Virus record (IMG/VR): IMGVR_UViG_2541047441_000020
Source of the DNA: a virus
Taxonomy: Duplodnaviria; Heunggongvirae; Uroviricota; Caudoviricetes
DNA length: 5,741 nucleotides
Strand: one strand, 5' to 3'
Shown: positions 1 through 5,741 of the stretch, piece after piece
Position numbering within the stretch: position 1 is the stretch's first letter
Layout: each line of letters starts with the position of its first letter
Notes under the pieces: generated by a model
Told to the model about the DNA's origin: nothing
Database searches by the model: none
What the model saw: the letters and a program-made list of their open reading frames with translations, nothing else
Program-made: the position numbers and the translations under genes

Positions 1-8
1 AGGGACGG

Positions 9-353
9 TTACTTTAATAATTTCAGTGCCTTTACATCCACTTCAACACTGCTCAGGTCTTTATCAATTTCACCCTCAATTCTTACTTTGTCTTTCGGAG
101 AAACATTCTGACCGGCCCATATGCTGTCATCGATATCCGTGACAATTGTCCCGCTATTGTCACGAAACTCATAACGTTCATCACCCACTTTTTTAACGAT
201 GCTCCCTTCAAGGATAACCCATGCATCATCCTTCAGTTCTTTTGCCTGCGCTACTGTTGAACGCTCTGCTTCAGGCCCTTGGAAACCGCCCTGCTGTGCA
301 AAAGCGCCAAAAGACACACCAGAAATAAGTGCTGCAATCAATACCTTTTTCAT
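9..353 (-). CDS. BOF (YgiW/YdeI, OB-fold) family periplasmic stress protein, 114 aa, with N-terminal signal peptide
   Basis: ATG at 353-351 preceded by AGAGGA with 6-nt spacing; TAA at 11-9. The N-terminus MKKVLIAALISGVSFGAFAQ is a typical Sec signal. QGGFQGP, DDxWVxLxG, SGTIxxDID and PKDxVxIxGExDKD match remembered YgiW/YdeI sequence. The family call is from memory. Confidence 0.85.
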   Translation of the reverse strand: MKKVLIAALISGVSFGAFAQQGGFQGPEAERSTVAQAKELKDDAWVILEGSIVKKVGDERYEFRDNSGTIVTDIDDSIWAGQNVSPKDKVRIEGEIDKDLSSVEVDVKALKLLK

Positions 354-410
354 TCATAGTCCTCTTTCAGAGATGAACATTCAAACAGCATTTTCAGTAT
401 GGTAAAGCGC

Positions 411-472
411 GGGTGCGTTGAGGATGCCTGACACATCAGAGGTGGCGGGAGATTACTCCCCCGCTTGGTCTC
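411..472 (-). promoter_or_regulatory. hok mRNA 3' UTR with fold-back inhibition (fbi)-like element and an imperfect hairpin
   Basis: Plus-strand 411-423 (gggtgcgttgagg) is the reverse complement of 786-797 except for one extra g, so the 3' end of the minus-strand transcript can pair with its 5' end. An imperfect hairpin lies at 446-465 (gcgggag / atta / ctcccccgc). Confidence 0.4.
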
Positions 473-628
473 TTACTTCTCAGATTCGTAGTCTACGAAG
501 ACAGCGACCTCCGTCTGGCCGGTTCGGACTCGTACCTCGCAGAGGTCTTTCCTCGTTACCAGTGCCGTCACTATGACGGTTAAACAGATGACGATCAGGG
601 CGATTAACATCGCCTTTTGCTGCTTCAT
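473..628 (-). CDS. hok: Hok/Gef family type I toxin, 51 aa small membrane peptide
   Basis: ATG at 628-626 preceded by AAGGAG with 9-nt spacing; TAA at 475-473. The product MKQQKAMLIALIVICLTVIVTALVTRKDLCEVRVRTGQTEVAVFVDYESEK closely matches remembered HokC/HokD: hydrophobic helix, then RKxLCE, then TGQTEVAVF. Confidence 0.85.
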   Translation of the reverse strand: MKQQKAMLIALIVICLTVIVTALVTRKDLCEVRVRTGQTEVAVFVDYESEK

Positions 629-685
629 AGCCTGCTTCTCCTTGCCTTTCGGCACGTAAGAGGCTAACCTAGATTTGCCGTTCAT
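473..685 (-). CDS. mok: mok-like in-frame upstream reading frame (70 codons) that extends hok at the N-terminus
   Basis: ATG at 685-683 with GAGG 8 nt upstream, in frame with hok. Chromosomal hok loci carry an in-frame mok of about this length. Whether it is translated is inference. Confidence 0.45.
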   Translation of the reverse strand: MNGKSRLASYVPKGKEKQAMKQQKAMLIALIVICLTVIVTALVTRKDLCEVRVRTGQTEVAVFVDYESEK

Positions 686-745
686 AGATTGAGCCTCAGA
701 TTAATGTTAGGCGTCTTGCAGGACGCGTAATGTTAACTGGGGCTT
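677..745 (+). ncRNA. sok: Putative Sok-like antisense RNA overlapping the mok start and ribosome-binding site; limits approximate
   Basis: Candidate plus-strand promoter inside the mok N-terminal codons: -35 TTGCCT (642-647), 17-nt spacer, -10 TAACCT (665-670). A transcript from about 677 would be antisense to the mok start (685-683) and its GAGG. No clean intrinsic terminator was found, so the 3' end is a guess. Confidence 0.3.
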
Positions 746-796
746 TTCTCTATCTGCCGTTGGTGTTCATGCCCGAGGCAGATAGCCTCAAGCACC
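686..796 (-). promoter_or_regulatory. hok mRNA 5' leader (tac/ucb-like region), transcription start near 796
   Basis: The minus-strand sequence from 796 reads GGGTGCTTGAGGCTATCTGCCTC..., resembling the remembered 5' end of plasmid R1 hok mRNA. It contains a 9-bp inverted repeat (750-758 with 777-785). Confidence 0.45.
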
Positions 797-803
797 CGCA
801 GCT

Positions 804-833
804 ATTCTACTTAACTTCCCATTACCTCGCCAA
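804..833 (-). promoter_or_regulatory. Candidate sigma70 promoter for hok/mok mRNA
   Basis: On the minus strand: -35 TTGGCG (833-828), 18-nt spacer, -10 TAGAAT (809-804), 7 nt to the proposed start at 796. Confidence 0.5.
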
Positions 834-999
834 TATGAAATCGGTCAGAAAGACAGACGTCCCATAAGGACAACAACGGAAAAAGAGATTTTGCTTGATG
901 CTATTTACCTCTGCACCATGAAGTTGCGCCAAAATCCCAGTGGTGATAACAGGAATTTGGTTGTTGGTGATTGGGGAAAGAAGTACGTTAGACTGTGGG

Positions 1000-2450
1000 T
1001 TAGTTCATTGACATGATAGTTACCTGCCTTCAATTTCCTAAGCAAGCGATGTAAACGATAATCAATATCAAATGTATTGACAGGTAAAATAATAACGATG
1101 TACCTTTGCTGATAACATATATCAGTCTTAAATCATAATGGAGGTAGATAAAATAACTAAACACACACAACAAATTTTTTATCAGTGACATAGCATATCT
1201 TAAGCATCCTTTAATGCTCATGGGGAGAACGCATGACTAAACATATGGACATTCATTGTCAAACACGCATATTTAACTCAATTAACCATGACACCAAATA
1301 TAAAATATGTATTTTTACTCCAAAAAACATTAAAAAAAATAATGCAACTCTTTATATACTTGATGGGAATAGTGCCAACAATTACATTTCTGATATTCTG
1401 CCTGTTATTGATGCACTACCCAATCCACCAGTGTTAGTTACACTTGGTTATGAATCTTGGAATAACCTTAGCATTCATCGCCGTGCTTACGATTATACTC
1501 CTGATGGTGAAAATGCTATTGTTGATAACTCTAAACCAGCATGGATCTACTTTACTGGTGGAGGAAGCCAGTCTTTCCGAGAATTATTACTAACTCAGAT
1601 CATGCCATGGGTTAGTACTATTGCTCCGAACAGTTCCAGAATCGGTATATGGGGACACTCGCTAGGTGCTATTTTTGTGCTTGATTGCTTAAAAAATAAT
1701 TCATGCTTTAACTATTATTATATATCTGCACCATCACTTCTATGGCAGAATGAAAGAATCATCAAGATAATTAAAGATGATATATCAGAATCAAAGCACA
1801 CTAAAAGTATATGCTTGCTTAACGGAAATCTTAGCCTTGATTACTCCGCATCTTTATATCCTGAAGCCATCAAAGCGGAATCTGTTTTGAGAAATATTTT
1901 GACAGAAAAATACAGTAATTTTTCTATTGTACAATTTCCAGAGCTCAATCATCAGGAGACTTTCTCTGCTGCACTCTGGAATAGCATTATTCATTTCAGC
2001 ATATAACAGAAAATATGTAATCACTTTATCAATCTAGCTAACATAACTGATATCAATCCTAATGGGTCTTTGAACATATTAAAAGATAACTTCTCATTTG
2101 TACATTGTTGTGTTCTTAGACCCATTTCAAAAATACTATTTTTTAGATACTAATAATTACATCCATTTAGCTATCTTCTAAATACTCCTCTCAGTTTCTT
2201 CATTGGAGCTGATTCAACTCCGGCAATGCATACTAGGATCATTTTATAAGCATACAAACAACATCCAGACTGTGAATTATTGCTATTCATTTTCTATGTA
2301 TCTGCTCTTTTCCCATCCACTGAAACACCAGAATCCAAAGGTTTCATGTTATTTTCACTATTCCATCATTACTCCTGTGTAAAATATCAAAACTCGCTGC
2401 ATCACTTCACTGTTACGGCACTCACTACAAATTATGTTCAATTGCCTGTC
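1000..2450. other. Low-GC islet (about 30-35% GC against about 50-55% flanking), probable horizontally acquired cargo; boundaries approximate
   Basis: Abrupt compositional shift judged by eye; the right boundary falls within the last ~30 codons of the 2358-2771 gene. No transposase, integrase or clear target-site duplication is visible. Confidence 0.6.
1233..2006 (+). CDS. Alpha/beta-hydrolase of the putative-esterase family (Fes/IroD/IroE siderophore-esterase-like), 257 aa, no signal peptide
   Basis: ATG at 1233 preceded by GGGGAGA; TAA at 2004-2006. GHSLG nucleophile elbow (Ser143), YILDGN (Asp44), RRAYDYTP (Arg84) and a C-terminal His240 in PELNH. Spacings Asp-Arg of 40 and Arg-Ser of 59 match what I recall for IroE (Asp90/Arg130/Ser189/His287); this is memory, not a search. 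The gene is very AT-rich. Confidence 0.75.
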   Translation: MTKHMDIHCQTRIFNSINHDTKYKICIFTPKNIKKNNATLYILDGNSANNYISDILPVIDALPNPPVLVTLGYESWNNLSIHRRAYDYTPDGENAIVDNSKPAWIYFTGGGSQSFRELLLTQIMPWVSTIAPNSSRIGIWGHSLGAIFVLDCLKNNSCFNYYYISAPSLLWQNERIIKIIKDDISESKHTKSICLLNGNLSLDYSASLYPEAIKAESVLRNILTEKYSNFSIVQFPELNHQETFSAALWNSIIHFSI

Positions 2451-2771
2451 ATAGCGGCGTATTTCTCCGTCTGGTAATGACCAGATAAGGTCAGGATCAA
2501 CCACAACCGGTTTCTTCAGTTTTGCCCTCGATAGTTTTTTGCGGGCGTTTTGCCAGTCCTTACGAGCCTGTTCAGATGGGAATAACCCGTAACCAGAGTT
2601 GTATACATCGCCACTGGCAACCAGCTCTCTGGCAAGAACGCTCATCAGATATCTTGTCGCACCTGTCTTGGCTTCCAGTTGCCGTAACGTCTCGCGCCCA
2701 CTCCGGCGTACTAGCTCAACAACCTGCCCTTTAATTTTTTCCCGCTCTTCCTGTGTAAATACTTTTGCCAT
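2358..2771 (-). CDS. Hypothetical prophage protein, 137 aa, with a winged-helix-like motif; function unknown
   Basis: The ORF track starts at TTG 2786, but ATG at 2771-2769 has GGAGG 5 nt upstream, immediately after the stop of the preceding gene (2789-2787). Motif LEAKTGATRYLMSVLARELVASGDVYNSGYGLF recurs in the neighbouring gene. The C-terminal ~28 codons lie in lower-GC DNA. Confidence 0.7.
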   Translation of the reverse strand: MAKVFTQEEREKIKGQVVELVRRSGRETLRQLEAKTGATRYLMSVLARELVASGDVYNSGYGLFPSEQARKDWQNARKKLSRAKLKKPVVVDPDLIWSLPDGEIRRYDRQLNIICSECRNSEVMQRVLIFYTGVMME

Positions 2772-2786
2772 AAGCGCCTCCGGCAA

Positions 2787-3455
2787 TCACTTTTCCGATA
2801 CAACACGGCGGGAAGAATCAGTAATCTGTCGAACAATATCCCGGTGCTTGTTCAGCTCCCGCAGCGCGGCGCAGACTCGCTCCCACTTCTGAACATCACT
2901 TTTCGCCCTGCGCAGCGCCAGGTTTGCCCTGCGAAGGGACGGAAAAATCAGCTCATCTGCTTGCGTTTCGGTAAACGATGGCAACGGCTGCACAATGTCC
3001 GCCACAGTTTCTGTTTTAATTTCTTCCTGTGTTGCGGCTTCCCGGACTGGTAACGCAGCACCTGCTGGCTGAGGAAAGGCCTTACCATCATTTTTCGTTA
3101 CCGGCGCGGCTTTCGGATCTGCTGGTAAATTACCCCCCGACATGCAGTAACGAAATTTACCGTTCTGATTAACGCGTGCCAGCCGCCCCGTTGCGGTTAC
3201 CACCGCCAGCGTGGAAGCAACCTTGCGAGTACTGACGCCGAACTTACCCGCCAGTTCCTCACACGTTTTAGCACCATCCTGACCGATAAACTCAACCATC
3301 ATGTCTGCGGTAACTTTTGGAGCGACCTCTTCGGTTACCACATCCGGCGCTTCAGGTTGTAGTGCCTGCCCTTCGGTTACCCCGGCTTCACCTTCGACAG
3401 CCAGAAACCAGGTGTGACCCGTTTTATCAACAACGCCATTTTTTTGAGTTCCCAC
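2787..3455 (-). CDS. Hypothetical prophage protein with winged-helix-like repeats; this ORF is probably the downstream part of a gene frameshifted at an A7 run
   Basis: 222-codon ORF whose frame opens only 3 codons upstream of its GTG start (3455), with no ribosome-binding site. The first in-frame ATG (codon 52) also lacks one. Contains [57 protein letters not shown]. Confidence 0.7.
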
Positions 3456-3556
3456 AGTTCGTTAAGAACTTCTTCACGGCTGATATCAAGCCGCGCCGCC
3501 AGTTCAACAGAATTGGCTTTTCCCATCGCTTTCAGTGCATGCAATACAGTTTCCAT
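3377..3556 (-). CDS. N-terminal segment (first 36-38 codons) of the same gene, in the -1 frame relative to 2787-3455; authentic start of the frameshifted gene
   Basis: ATG at 3556-3554 with GAGGT 9 nt upstream, directly after the DnaC-like stop (3584-3582). Encodes [39 protein letters not shown] up to the A7 tract (plus-strand T7 at 3439-3445), then stops at TAA 3379-3377. Confidence 0.45.
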
Positions 3557-3581
3557 CGAAAATTTACCTCGTCAAAAATTC

Positions 3582-4322
3582 TCACATACCCTGACGTCCA
3601 ACGTTTGACCGCCAGCTCTCCCAGTTAAAATTCACCCAACGACCACCATTCATGGTCATACGGTCCATCACCCGATCTCCGAGGAGTGTGCTCATCGCTG
3701 CGTGATTCAGGTTCGTCAGCATTCCGACACTACGCATCGAAGCCGTTCTGCGGTCGACTATCTGGTTCAGCGTGACCTGCTCGTTGCGCGTATCCCGCTG
3801 CATGCCAATTTCATCAAGGACCAGAAGGTCAACTCCACAAAGCTCCTGTAAAAATTTTTCCCCGGACTGGCCGTTGTCGTAGCCGTCATGCAACACGCTC
3901 ATGACATCGGACACGGTGACGATAATCACGCTTCTCCCCTTCGCCATCAGCCGATTGCCAATCGCTGCTGCCAGGTGATTTTTACCGGTACCAGGTTTAC
4001 CGCTGAACACGAAGTTTGTACATCCGGTCATCAATTCATCGGCAATGGATTTCGCCTGGCTCAGAGCATGGCGCTGACCGTCGTTCTGCACCCGGTAGTT
4101 CCCGAATGAGCACTTCCTGTGAAGCGGCTGGATGCCCGCACGGTTCAGGATTTTTTCAACCCGCACCTGATGATTCAGGCGGTTAATCTCCTCGCTGCGT
4201 TTTCGTCCTTCAGCAAGTTGCCATTCCCGCCACTCCTCCACCGTCCGGTACGGTGGAACCGCCCCCTGTGGTGCAAGTCTGCGAATACGTTCAAGAACCC
4301 CAACTGCCGCAATGTTTTTCAT
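3582..4322 (-). CDS. DnaC-like replicative helicase loader (AAA+ ATPase), 246 aa, prophage replication protein
   Basis: Walker A SGKPGTGKNHLAAAIG and Walker B LLVLDEIG; near-colinear with remembered E. coli DnaC (IINQIVDRR, GMLTNLN, GDRVMDRM, WVNFNWESWR). ATG at 4322 follows the O-like stop by 6 nt. Matches the ydaV position in Rac-type prophages. Confidence 0.9.
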   Translation of the reverse strand: MKNIAAVGVLERIRRLAPQGAVPPYRTVEEWREWQLAEGRKRSEEINRLNHQVRVEKILNRAGIQPLHRKCSFGNYRVQNDGQRHALSQAKSIADELMTGCTNFVFSGKPGTGKNHLAAAIGNRLMAKGRSVIIVTVSDVMSVLHDGYDNGQSGEKFLQELCGVDLLVLDEIGMQRDTRNEQVTLNQIVDRRTASMRSVGMLTNLNHAAMSTLLGDRVMDRMTMNGGRWVNFNWESWRSNVGRQGM

Positions 4323-4328
4323 GACACG

Positions 4329-5291
4329 TCACCCCCTGAATCCCGGCGGTATTTCAGTGTCCGGTTCAGAAATGTGATTCACGCAACGCTGCGCGGGCGA
4401 ACGCCCCAGGCGGATAACCAGTTCATCCCATTTTTCCCGGAGTTTTGCCGGACTCATGATGTTTTTTACCCAGAACGAATCCCGCTGGAGACGCCCAAAC
4501 ATTTCACAAATTTGTCTGTGAGTTCTGCCATCCAGCATCCGCATTGTCCGCACGTCATTGGCCCATGCAGTCCAGTTGGGTTCTTTCGGTCTCGTGATCT
4601 CGCCATCATCGCTGGCCGCCTGCTCGTAAAGACTCACGATTCGTCCCCAGATCCACTGTGCGCACACCAAATCTTCCTGACTTCCCCACTGGCGTTTTTT
4701 CGCACTGAACACAACCGCGTCAGGGTGTCGGGTTAAAAAATTCTGTTCAGCCGTCTGCGGGTCCGGTTGCGAAGCGTCCGGACAAGAAGATCTTTTATCT
4801 GACGGATCAGGTTTTAATACTGACGGATCGGGGTCAATCATCGCCCCCCTAATCGGCAGTTTGTTATCAACAGTTGATCCATCAAAATTTGACGGGTCAA
4901 CCGTTGAGGGGGCAATATTTGACGGGTCAACTGTTAACGGGTCATTTTTTGCCGGGCTAATTTTTCTTTTCGGTTTATATGACTCACGCGCCGCCGCAGC
5001 AGCTGCTTCGAGTTTTTCCACATTAAGCCGATAGATATTGCTTACATTACGCCCACCGACCTTACGCTCTTCCTTCGTCAGCCAGCCCTCTTTCGCCAGT
5101 TCTGCAATAGCCGATTTCACTGTGGATTCACTTCTTGCACCGATCTGACGCCGGATAGTTTCAATGGCAGGCCATGACACGCCCTCGTCATTGCTGTAGT
5201 CTGCAAGACGGGCCATAACCGCCACCCTGGATAAGATCATGCCGGTGAAGGCGCACCCTTCCCAGACAAGACCATGAAGCTTGCTGCTCAT
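4329..5291 (-). CDS. Phage replication initiator (lambda O-like): N-terminal helix-turn-helix domain, low-complexity linker encoded by iterons, C-terminal domain
   Basis: The ORF track starts at GTG 5306, but ATG at 5291-5289 with GGGGG upstream is the better start. N-terminus (ARLADYSNDEGVSWPAIETIRRQIGARSESTVKSAIAELAKEGWLTKEER...NVSNIYRLN) resembles initiator HTH domains. The linker repeats TVDPSN. It sits directly upstream of the DnaC-like gene. Confidence 0.8.
   Translation of the reverse strand: MSSKLHGLVWEGCAFTGMILSRVAVMARLADYSNDEGVSWPAIETIRRQIGARSESTVKSAIAELAKEGWLTKEERKVGGRNVSNIYRLNVEKLEAAAAAARESYKPKRKISPAKNDPLTVDPSNIAPSTVDPSNFDGSTVDNKLPIRGAMIDPDPSVLKPDPSDKRSSCPDASQPDPQTAEQNFLTRHPDAVVFSAKKRQWGSQEDLVCAQWIWGRIVSLYEQAASDDGEITRPKEPNWTAWANDVRTMRMLDGRTHRQICEMFGRLQRDSFWVKNIMSPAKLREKWDELVIRLGRSPAQRCVNHISEPDTEIPPGFRG
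4799..4944. repeat. Iteron cluster (putative prophage replication origin) inside the O-like gene, flanked by an AT-rich stretch at 4945-4980
   Basis: ctgacggatcagg (4799-4811) and ctgacggatcggg (4820-4832) are 21 bp apart. An exact 13-bp direct repeat tttgacgggtcaa occurs at 4888-4900 and 4918-4930 (30-bp period), with a partial third copy at 4862-4877. Each unit is dyad-symmetric (TTGAC-GG-GTCAA; TCAAC-N-GTTGA). Followed by ttttttgccgggctaatttttcttttcggtttatat. Confidence 0.55.
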
Positions 5292-5313
5292 AAAACCCCC
5301 GAACACCGTGCTT

Positions 5314-5739
5314 TTAGTGCATCACCACAGCATTCCCTGCCGGGCCGCCGCGATTCATCTGGTCATACAAAACAACCGCTGACGCAACAAAATCATCGAC
5401 ATCCTTCACCAGCCGATCCCTCCGTTCGACGATCTCACGGTAATATTCAGAACTGTGGCTGCGCATACGGGCCACCAGCAAAGGCGGCATCGCCTTTTCG
5501 ATCGCCGGTAACAGAGCCTGCATTTTTTCAACAGCATCAGGGGTGTCTTTATCCAGCCAACGGAAAATTTTCTGGGTATTACGGGCCAGGGCTTCCGGAT
5601 GGCTGTCGTCATACAGTTCCGGGAACGTCATTCCCAGCTCGAAATACGCTTTGGTAATTTTCGCAGCCGGTACTTTTTCGCCGTCCGGATGCGCCCAGAC
5701 ATTCATCGCCATGCGGATGTGTTCATGCTTGATTTTCAT
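5314..5739 (-). CDS. YdaT-like prophage protein, 141 aa, function uncertain; its start is 3 nt from the window edge
   Basis: ATG at 5739-5737, TAA at 5316-5314, 22 nt upstream of the O-like start. Its position (unknown gene, then O-like, then DnaC-like) matches ydaT-ydaU-ydaV of Rac-type prophages. The MKIKHEHI N-terminus is consistent with my recollection of YdaT, which is unverified. Confidence 0.7.
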   Translation of the reverse strand: MKIKHEHIRMAMNVWAHPDGEKVPAAKITKAYFELGMTFPELYDDSHPEALARNTQKIFRWLDKDTPDAVEKMQALLPAIEKAMPPLLVARMRSHSSEYYREIVERRDRLVKDVDDFVASAVVLYDQMNRGGPAGNAVVMH

Positions 5740-5741
5740 GA

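Follow-up and report, generated by a model that had tools for sequence, protein, structure and literature searches.

A leaderless IroE-family esterase gene, putatively iron-regulated, in an AT-rich cargo cassette of Sp4-type Escherichia coli prophages

The 5741-nucleotide stretch of DNA analysed here (hereafter the window) comes from a tailed phage (Caudoviricetes; IMG/VR record IMGVR_UViG_2541047441_000020) and carries an AT-rich insert between the DUF977/Ren-like gene and the hok/sok module of a Rac/Sp4-type lambdoid Escherichia coli prophage. The single conserved gene of the insert (1233-2006, plus strand) is the subject of this report. It encodes a 257-residue protein, identical to ECs_1077/WP_000160654, that homology, a structural model and the conserved residues place in the IroE family of serine esterases and that has no leader peptide. 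The open reading frame (ORF) is present as it was described in an initial annotation made from the sequence alone.

The insert, which we call the islet, spans 876-2394 (no strand assigned), about 1.4-1.5 kb with a G+C content (GC) of 33-34%; its borders were set by comparison with islet-free phages. In 200-bp sliding windows GC falls to 0.27-0.40 between positions ~1000 and ~2400, compared with 0.45-0.57 on both sides, and the computed value for the block 980-2392 is 33.3%, against 47.5% for the left flank and 52.5% for the right. The coding sequence of the esterase has a GC of 34.4% and a third-position GC (GC3) of 27.9%, whereas neighbouring phage genes have GC3 values of 48-62%. The low-GC islet of the initial annotation is thus real and the profile is not uniform, but its right end, placed at 2450, lay ~60-90 bp too far, inside the DUF977 gene. 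On the left, homology of the hok module to the islet-free phages Tritos and mEp460_ev081 ends at 873-875 (~842-875 across comparisons). On the right, homology of the LygF/DUF977 gene to islet-free phages restarts at 2392-2395, which puts the junction within the last dozen codons of the DUF977 gene; its last 11-12 codons are islet-specific sequence. A divergent esterase-carrying clade (loci L022-L025) has only the sequence from 980 onward in common with the window, so that the core cassette, common to all esterase-carrying loci, is 980-2392. Positions 876-979 form a variable junction between hok and this core and are replaced by unrelated sequence in the L022-L025 clade. The junction also holds a short pseudogene fragment (889-972, minus strand), annotated in RefSeq as 'hypothetical protein, missing C-terminus'. 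No terminal direct or inverted repeats were found at the islet ends.

The esterase gene is surrounded by non-coding stretches of 253-357 bp upstream and 351 bp downstream, close to the ~300 bp on each side given in the initial annotation. A 63-codon ORF (1030-1221, minus strand) was considered as a second islet gene and rejected, being frameshifted in the L023 clade. ORFs 2203-2382 and 2280-2477 fall in the indel-rich, poorly conserved downstream region (80-83% identity, 28-32 gap positions). A search with Rfam found no RNA family within the islet; sok, which lies outside it, was the sole match. Insertion sequence (IS) elements stand beside the cassette in two loci, L003:5300-6373 and L004:7272-7968 (an IS481-family element that separates hok from the islet, and a copy of IS1A within DUF977), and the esterase gene is intact in both.

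A phmmer search of all PDB sequences returned IroE (2GZR) as the best match to the islet protein (E 5e-26, query residues 8-253, 27% identity). Weaker matches were BES (9e-13), PfeE (1.5e-11) and EstA (1.5e-8), together with EstB and the IroE-like Shewanella protein 3gff, and there were none besides siderophore esterases. An AlphaFold2 model built on an alignment of 81 sequences (pLDDT 91.1, pTM 0.91) was compared with the PDB using Foldseek; the best 30 matches are all siderophore esterases (IroE, PfeE, BES and EstA/B; E 8e-19 to 3e-15, TM 0.71-0.81). The initial annotation had expected IroE and Fes structures. IroE is indeed the closest, but Fes was reached only by fold (E 5e-10, TMt 0.45), followed by generic esterases, some eight orders of magnitude worse than the top matches. 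In a viral structure library there was no close fold, the best match being a generic α/β hydrolase (E 1e-8, TM 0.54). The PHROG family phrog_8493, listed as 'function unknown', matches the protein end to end.

In alignments of 17 and 81 relatives four positions (Asp44, Arg84, Asp87 and Gly141) do not vary, and three more (His142, Ser143 and His240) reach at least 90% conservation. Asp44 sits in an LDGN motif, Arg84 in RRAYDYTP (RxxDYTP) and Ser143 in GHSLG; these motifs and the C-terminal histidine had been picked out in the initial annotation, and all align with IroE residues. The alignment pairs Asp44 with Asp90 of IroE, Arg84 with Arg130, Ser143 with Ser189 and His240 with His287 (IroE numbers are the PDB chain numbering plus 40). 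A role for Asp90 and Arg130 in IroE was reportedly described by Larsen et al. in 2006. The acidic position of most relatives ('LMEGD') is occupied by Asn in the prophage protein ('LLNGN'). Ser143 and His240 fall, as anticipated, on the Ser189/His287 catalytic dyad of IroE (PMC10515146). Judged by homology, modelled fold and catalytic residues, the protein belongs to the IroE-type family of siderophore esterases, and it is predicted to hydrolyse ester bonds of enterobactin or salmochelin. One relative, P0020, is encoded next to entE/B/A-like genes, two TonB-dependent receptor genes and FecCD-type transport genes.

The N-terminus departs from that of typical IroE proteins. An in-frame stop lies 8 codons 5' of the ATG, making a longer N-terminus impossible, and the N-terminal sequence MTKHMDIHCQTRIF is not hydrophobic. 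A hydrophobic N-terminal segment is present in 63 of the 81 family members. Among the 12 nearest relatives an N-terminal extension of 38-58 residues with a hydrophobic 12-mer is nearly universal, and the apparent leaderless exceptions are short gene calls with longer cluster mates; the nearest named relatives are leader-bearing Pantoea proteins. The initial annotation was therefore right that the leader or anchor of IroE is missing. When the N-termini of three relatives were used as tblastn queries against the upstream DNA, a relic of leader-coding sequence was not found, only noise (E above 0.3). The prophage protein starts a few residues ahead of the first β-strand of the fold and, having neither signal nor anchor, is predicted to stay in the cytoplasm, where Fes and BesA act (PMC8891985).

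Nine nucleotide alleles of the gene, which fall into three clades, were found in E. coli. The eight that are intact all have 257 codons and keep Asp44, Arg84, Ser143 and His240. Pairwise ratios of non-synonymous to synonymous divergence (dN/dS) between the allele clades are 0.16-0.25 at dS 0.12-0.32. The esterase gene is under purifying selection and is no decaying remnant. A run of eight adenines inside the coding sequence (1332-1339, plus strand) marks an inactivation site: one IMG/VR copy, L026, has seven there (6100-6107) and is frameshifted. The run may be a recurrent inactivation or switching site.

A Shine-Dalgarno sequence, GGGGAG (1222-1227, plus strand), lies 5 nt before the ATG, and its columns are invariant across the three allele clades. 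Since the esterase family is iron-related, we scanned for the Fur consensus (GATAATGATAATCATTATC; in its 7-1-7 form, TGATAATNATTATCA). The best match in the 5.7-kb window is a Fur-box-like site upstream of the gene (site 1, GTAAACGATAATCAATATC, 1051-1069, plus strand), which agrees with the consensus at 15 of 19 positions and contains a 7-1-7 core (1056-1070) at 12/14. When the 253-bp upstream region was shuffled 2000 times, only 8 of the shuffles reached 15/19, and site 1 keeps 14-15/19 in all allele clades. It is also the sole site in the window with at most two mismatches to the 7-1-7 motif; any such site appeared in 7 of 200 shuffles. A second Fur-like site (site 2, TGATAACATATATCA, 1110-1124, plus strand) matches the 7-1-7 motif at 11/14 and is contained in a perfect 6-bp palindrome, CTGATA-N5-TATCAG (1109-1125, plus strand), that is invariant in all allele clades. 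With up to three mismatches allowed, the window contains only these two 7-1-7 sites (1056-1070 and 1110-1124), both upstream of the esterase, and they flank a perfect TTGACA at 1077-1082.

The Fur scan was calibrated on 310 kb of loci, much of it redundant prophage DNA. Matches of at least 15/19 occurred at three kinds of place only: site 1, a TonB-dependent receptor promoter region in locus L029 and a Pantoea locus, L028. The L029 region belongs to a catecholate siderophore cluster and, at 15-16/19, serves as a positive control. In the Pantoea locus the 15/19 match (L028:3670-3688) lies 151 bp 5' of the start codon of the closest relative outside E. coli, an α/β hydrolase (P0023) whose neighbours include no obvious siderophore genes. 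Separately, a 14/19 match, AAGATTGATTATCAATATT, lies between the CPBP protease and Q antiterminator genes of Sakai Sp4 (L001:3105-3123) and is conserved in five loci; it could be a further iron-responsive site in that prophage.

Read from the sequence, TTGACA (1077-1082), an 18-bp spacer and TACCTT (1101-1106) make up a candidate sigma-70 promoter on the plus strand, and TTGACA and its surroundings are invariant across the allele clades. A consensus scan offered an alternative candidate, ATAACA-16-CATAAT (1112-1139, plus strand). Downstream, an imperfect hairpin followed by T-rich sequence (2061-2126, plus strand; arms 88% complementary) is a candidate terminator of the esterase transcript. 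The segment 2004-2160 folds at -26.7 kcal/mol (z -2.8), and none of 200 shuffles folds as well; the consensus terminator scan did not call the hairpin at 2061-2126. Because the consensus scans for promoters and terminators did not rise above shuffle expectation, we treat these assignments as candidates.

The 1451-bp stretch from 1000 to 2450 matches prophage Sp4 of E. coli O157:H7 Sakai at 100% identity, and there the gene is ECs_1077 ('hypothetical protein'; Sakai positions 1,173,311-1,174,084); it is equally identical in CP-933M of EDL933 (WP_000160654, 'alpha/beta hydrolase'). Of 5426 complete E. coli genomes, 471 contain the islet (458 at an identity of at least 99% and 13 at 90-95%), and in 467 of the 471 carriers the match spans at least 80% of the esterase gene. 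Among the carriers listed, most are O157:H7, O145, O121 and other cattle and human strains, predominantly of the Shiga-toxin type. The islet was not found in 50,697 deposited phage genomes, and the cassette is missing from the INPHARED phages that have both flanks in common with the window. Neither the esterase (in a protein-based scan) nor the exact 78-base junction of the window (no match) was found in the GTDB species representatives. Among 1.84 billion representative proteins, searched exhaustively with HMMER and, with agreeing results, by a word-indexed method, the relatives consist of an E. coli clade and then, after a gap, proteins at 31-33% identity. In the searches run, the esterase gene was found in E. 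coli prophages only.

The whole window is present in no complete E. coli genome; the best match covers 93% of it at 93.7% identity. Other IMG/VR records match parts of it closely, L009 and L012 over 1-2923 and 1-3923 at 99.2-99.3% and L010 and L011 over 401-5741 at 99%. On these matches, the window is a mosaic variant of the Sp4-type E. coli prophage.

All genes surrounding the islet are on the minus strand, so the esterase gene is antisense to the phage early-right operon. To its right lie a YdaT-like gene (5314-5739), an O-like replication gene (4329-5306), a DnaC/IstB-like gene (3582-4322), a DUF1627 gene (2787-3455) and, as the last early-right gene before the slot that holds the islet, the DUF977/LygF/Ren-like gene (2358-2786; Pfam DUF977, E 4e-27; phrog_142 'Ren-like exclusion protein', E 5e-45). 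To its left are the mok/hok toxin gene (473-685) and the sok RNA region (623-797), together 473-797 on the minus strand (Pfam HOK_GEF, E 5e-22; Rfam RF01794, 105.6 bits, E 5e-24). The hok/sok and replication-module labels of the initial annotation are borne out by these matches to HOK_GEF, sok, IstB/DnaC-like, O-like and YdaT genes. Within the O-like gene a 15-bp repeat (consensus TCAACAGTTGACGGG) occurs five times at 4867-4944 and encodes TVDPSN repeats; the 15-bp copies look like ori iterons as in lambda O. Directly left of hok is a BOF gene (9-353, minus strand; also L009:4777-5121) for a 114-residue YgiW/YdeI-like OB-fold protein (Pfam PF04076, E 5e-33) with a signal-peptide-like N-terminus, predicted to be secreted. 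This gene is missing at that place in Sakai Sp4 and in those complete E. coli genomes that align with the remainder of the window, and therefore looks like a second small cargo insertion. In Sp4 a SASA-family esterase gene lies ~6 kb from the islet.

We propose that the islet is an iron-regulated lysogenic-conversion cassette for a cytoplasmic siderophore esterase and consider the complete proposal to have a slightly better than even chance of being correct. Its odd composition, its presence or absence among homologous phages and its position on the opposite strand with its own putative signals are those of a prophage moron. The cassette would be an AT-rich unit acquired horizontally and equipped with a promoter, a ribosome-binding site and, probably, a terminator of its own. 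As the esterase is transcribed against the phage early operon, we propose that it is expressed from the lysogen and not in lytic growth. The product would be a serine esterase of the IroE branch, with a Ser143-His240 dyad plus Asp44 and Arg84, and, lacking the signal or anchor of that branch, would remain in the cytoplasm like Fes and BesA. Its likeliest job would be to hydrolyse the ester bonds of enterobactin-type trilactone siderophores, whether imported ferric complexes or apo-siderophore not yet exported. In iron starvation the gene would be switched on through the pair of Fur-box-like sites that flank the -35 hexamer. The parts of the proposal are not equally firm. That the gene encodes an active cytoplasmic IroE-family esterase is, taken alone, very probable, and for control by Fur the sequence evidence leaves the chances about evenly balanced. 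Use of the promoter, control by Fur and H-NS, the substrate and the benefit to the lysogen are what we infer from the features described above.

Several observations weigh against this proposal. The match to Pfam PF00756, which the initial annotation had expected, fell short: at 17.0 bits it is under the curated gathering threshold of 22 bits (E 0.005) and covers residues 81-161 only, and none of the NCBIfam models matches the esterase. The family assignment therefore rests on IroE homology and fold and not on Pfam. Identity to any relative outside E. coli, characterised or not, is just 27-33%, so the substrate may have shifted. As the initial annotation had noted for iro and ent genes, no siderophore genes accompany the esterase: neither iroBCDN nor ent/fep genes, nor a TonB-dependent receptor gene, were found within 6 kb of it in Sakai Sp4 or in EDL933 CP-933M. 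A literature search found no paper on the esterase gene or on phage-encoded siderophore esterases. Defence genes take up this slot in other phages. No -10 element is better than weak to moderate, and agreement with a consensus at 15/19 does not amount to binding; AT-rich DNA is also rich in Fur-like words, which overlap with motifs of the H-NS type. The E. coli host already has Fes, which makes a second cytoplasmic enterobactin esterase look redundant. According to the table in PMC8891985 that quotes values of Lin et al. (2005), IroE is also poor on ferric enterobactin, with a kcat/Km of 0.9 compared with >90 for Fes. The prophage esterase might instead act on the apo-siderophore inside the cell.

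The low identity to relatives raises the prospect that the enzyme is an active cytoplasmic esterase with a long-diverged IroE fold that cleaves no siderophore but some other small-molecule ester, for instance a toxin, antibiotic or signal. The absence of intermediates among the 1.84 billion representatives, a long branch in the neighbour-joining tree, the loss of both the leader and the linkage to siderophore genes, and the location of the closest relative (Pantoea) outside any obvious siderophore cluster are all consistent with such a change. However, the four residues implicated in IroE catalysis are kept, and two of them, Asp44 and Arg84, are specific to the family and not general features of α/β hydrolases. 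All characterised members of the fold cluster cleave siderophore esters, and Fur-like sites lie upstream both of the prophage gene and of the gene for the Pantoea relative. We regard a non-siderophore substrate as rather unlikely.

A role in phage defence has to be weighed in the light of what other phages carry between LygF/DUF977 and hok. In mEp460_ev081 the slot (L008:1823-3172) holds an opposite-strand PD-T7-1 gene (PADLOC, E 5e-157) and in Tritos (L007:1877-3211) a PDC-S15/FRG-domain gene (E 1e-98); in PhiR5_2 (L006:2412-3913) it holds a DUF4145 protein gene with HigBA. For PD-T7-1, activity against phages has been validated by experiment (bioRxiv 10.1101/2022.05.12.491691). The slots of HannyBb, vB_EcoS-640R1 and PhiR42_1 contain co-oriented small genes and a methyltransferase. 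The esterase is thus one of several cassettes that alternate in this slot, which suggests a hotspot for cargo and defence genes, as yet undescribed, in Rac/Sp4-type lambdoid phages. The esterase might then serve phage defence, superinfection exclusion or protection from colicins, either by shifting the siderophore and iron status of the cell, and with it the expression of the TonB-dependent receptors that phages and colicins exploit, or by hydrolysing an infection-related ester. That it is antisense like PD-T7-1, that the same slot is used for anti-phage cargo by other lambdoid phages and that its neighbour is a Ren-like exclusion protein would suit such a function. Location alone is weak evidence, because in other phages the slot is occupied by small co-oriented genes of an ordinary kind or by a methyltransferase gene. 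Moreover, no defence model in PADLOC-DB matches the esterase at E up to 1, the whole family consists of siderophore esterases, and the Fur-like sites suggest control by iron and not the sensing of infection. We judge a defence gene of this kind to be distinctly unlikely. The Fur-box-like sites upstream of the esterase and the anti-phage genes that occupy the slot in other phages are both new here; the former favour an iron role, and the latter keep the defence idea alive.

A more speculative possibility, which we hold to be quite doubtful, is that a prophage esterase induced by iron starvation rewires the siderophore economy of its host as a competitive or protective trait. Enterobactin might, for example, be linearised or destroyed in the cell, which would alter the iron status, signalling through Fur and the set of TonB-dependent receptors on display. 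These receptors are entry ports for phages T1, T5, phi80 and H8 and for colicins B, D, Ia and M. If this were true, a siderophore-cleaving enzyme would represent a novel type of cargo for superinfection exclusion or colicin protection within a lambdoid defence hotspot.

That the islet is a silent or decaying passenger, an AT-rich remnant silenced by H-NS, is very improbable: foreign DNA bound by H-NS typically has a GC like the 33% seen here, one copy (L026) is frameshifted and IS elements have inserted beside the gene in some genomes, but these signs are contradicted by the low dN/dS between clades that differ at 12-32% of synonymous sites, by the eight full-length alleles with their catalytic residues, by the conserved Shine-Dalgarno sequence and promoter region, and by the match over at least 80% of the gene in 467 of the 471 carrier genomes.

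Should the gene encode an iron-regulated cytoplasmic siderophore esterase, as we propose, it would be the first phage-borne member of the family found in these searches, and a trait in iron acquisition or siderophore remodelling would join the known contributions of prophages to the fitness of enterohaemorrhagic E. coli (EHEC). Public annotation of the esterase ends at 'alpha/beta hydrolase'. The slot between the Ren-like gene and hok would, as a cargo hotspot, be useful for mining more cargo.

Of the known systems, IroE, the salmochelin/enterobactin trilactone hydrolase of the iroA cluster (2GZR/2GZS), is most like the prophage protein, being both the best sequence match and the best fold (TM 0.76-0.81). 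Both are single-domain α/β-hydrolases without the N-terminal lid of Fes, and they have the same Ser-His dyad, Asp and Arg. IroE and its nearest relatives begin with a hydrophobic leader or anchor followed by a 'PLGxNIADxGS' segment, whereas the prophage protein has neither. IroE is encoded in iroBCDEN, whereas the prophage gene stands alone in a cargo slot at 34% GC. PfeE of Pseudomonas aeruginosa (6GI0) is of the same family and fold (TM ~0.75). PfeE and the Campylobacter enzyme Cee are periplasmic ferric-enterobactin esterases linked to TonB-dependent enterobactin receptors. In contrast to periplasmic, receptor-linked PfeE, the prophage protein has no leader and no receptor gene.

BesA/BES, the ferri-bacillibactin esterase of Bacillus (2QM0), and Fes of E. 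coli (3C87) are cytoplasmic, leaderless enzymes that free iron after import; the same location is predicted for the prophage protein. BES falls in the same fold cluster (TM 0.80) but is more distant in sequence than IroE (E 9e-13). Fes has an extra N-terminal lid domain, a Ser-His-Glu triad and ~380-400 residues (PMC10515146), compared with one domain and 257 residues in the prophage protein.

PD-T7-1 of mEp460_ev081 and PDC-S15 of Tritos are, like the esterase, single-gene cassettes in the same slot and the same antisense orientation, but have no relation to it in sequence or fold. A precedent for a Fur-controlled moron is stx1, which is said, from the work of Calderwood and Mekalanos in 1987, to be a Fur-repressed prophage gene. 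Both stx1 and the NanS-p sialate O-acetylesterases are likewise lysogenic-conversion genes of lambdoid prophages in the same EHEC strains. They belong to unrelated families and lie in the late region downstream of Q, whereas the esterase gene is on the opposite strand, with the replication region on one side and the nin/hok region on the other.

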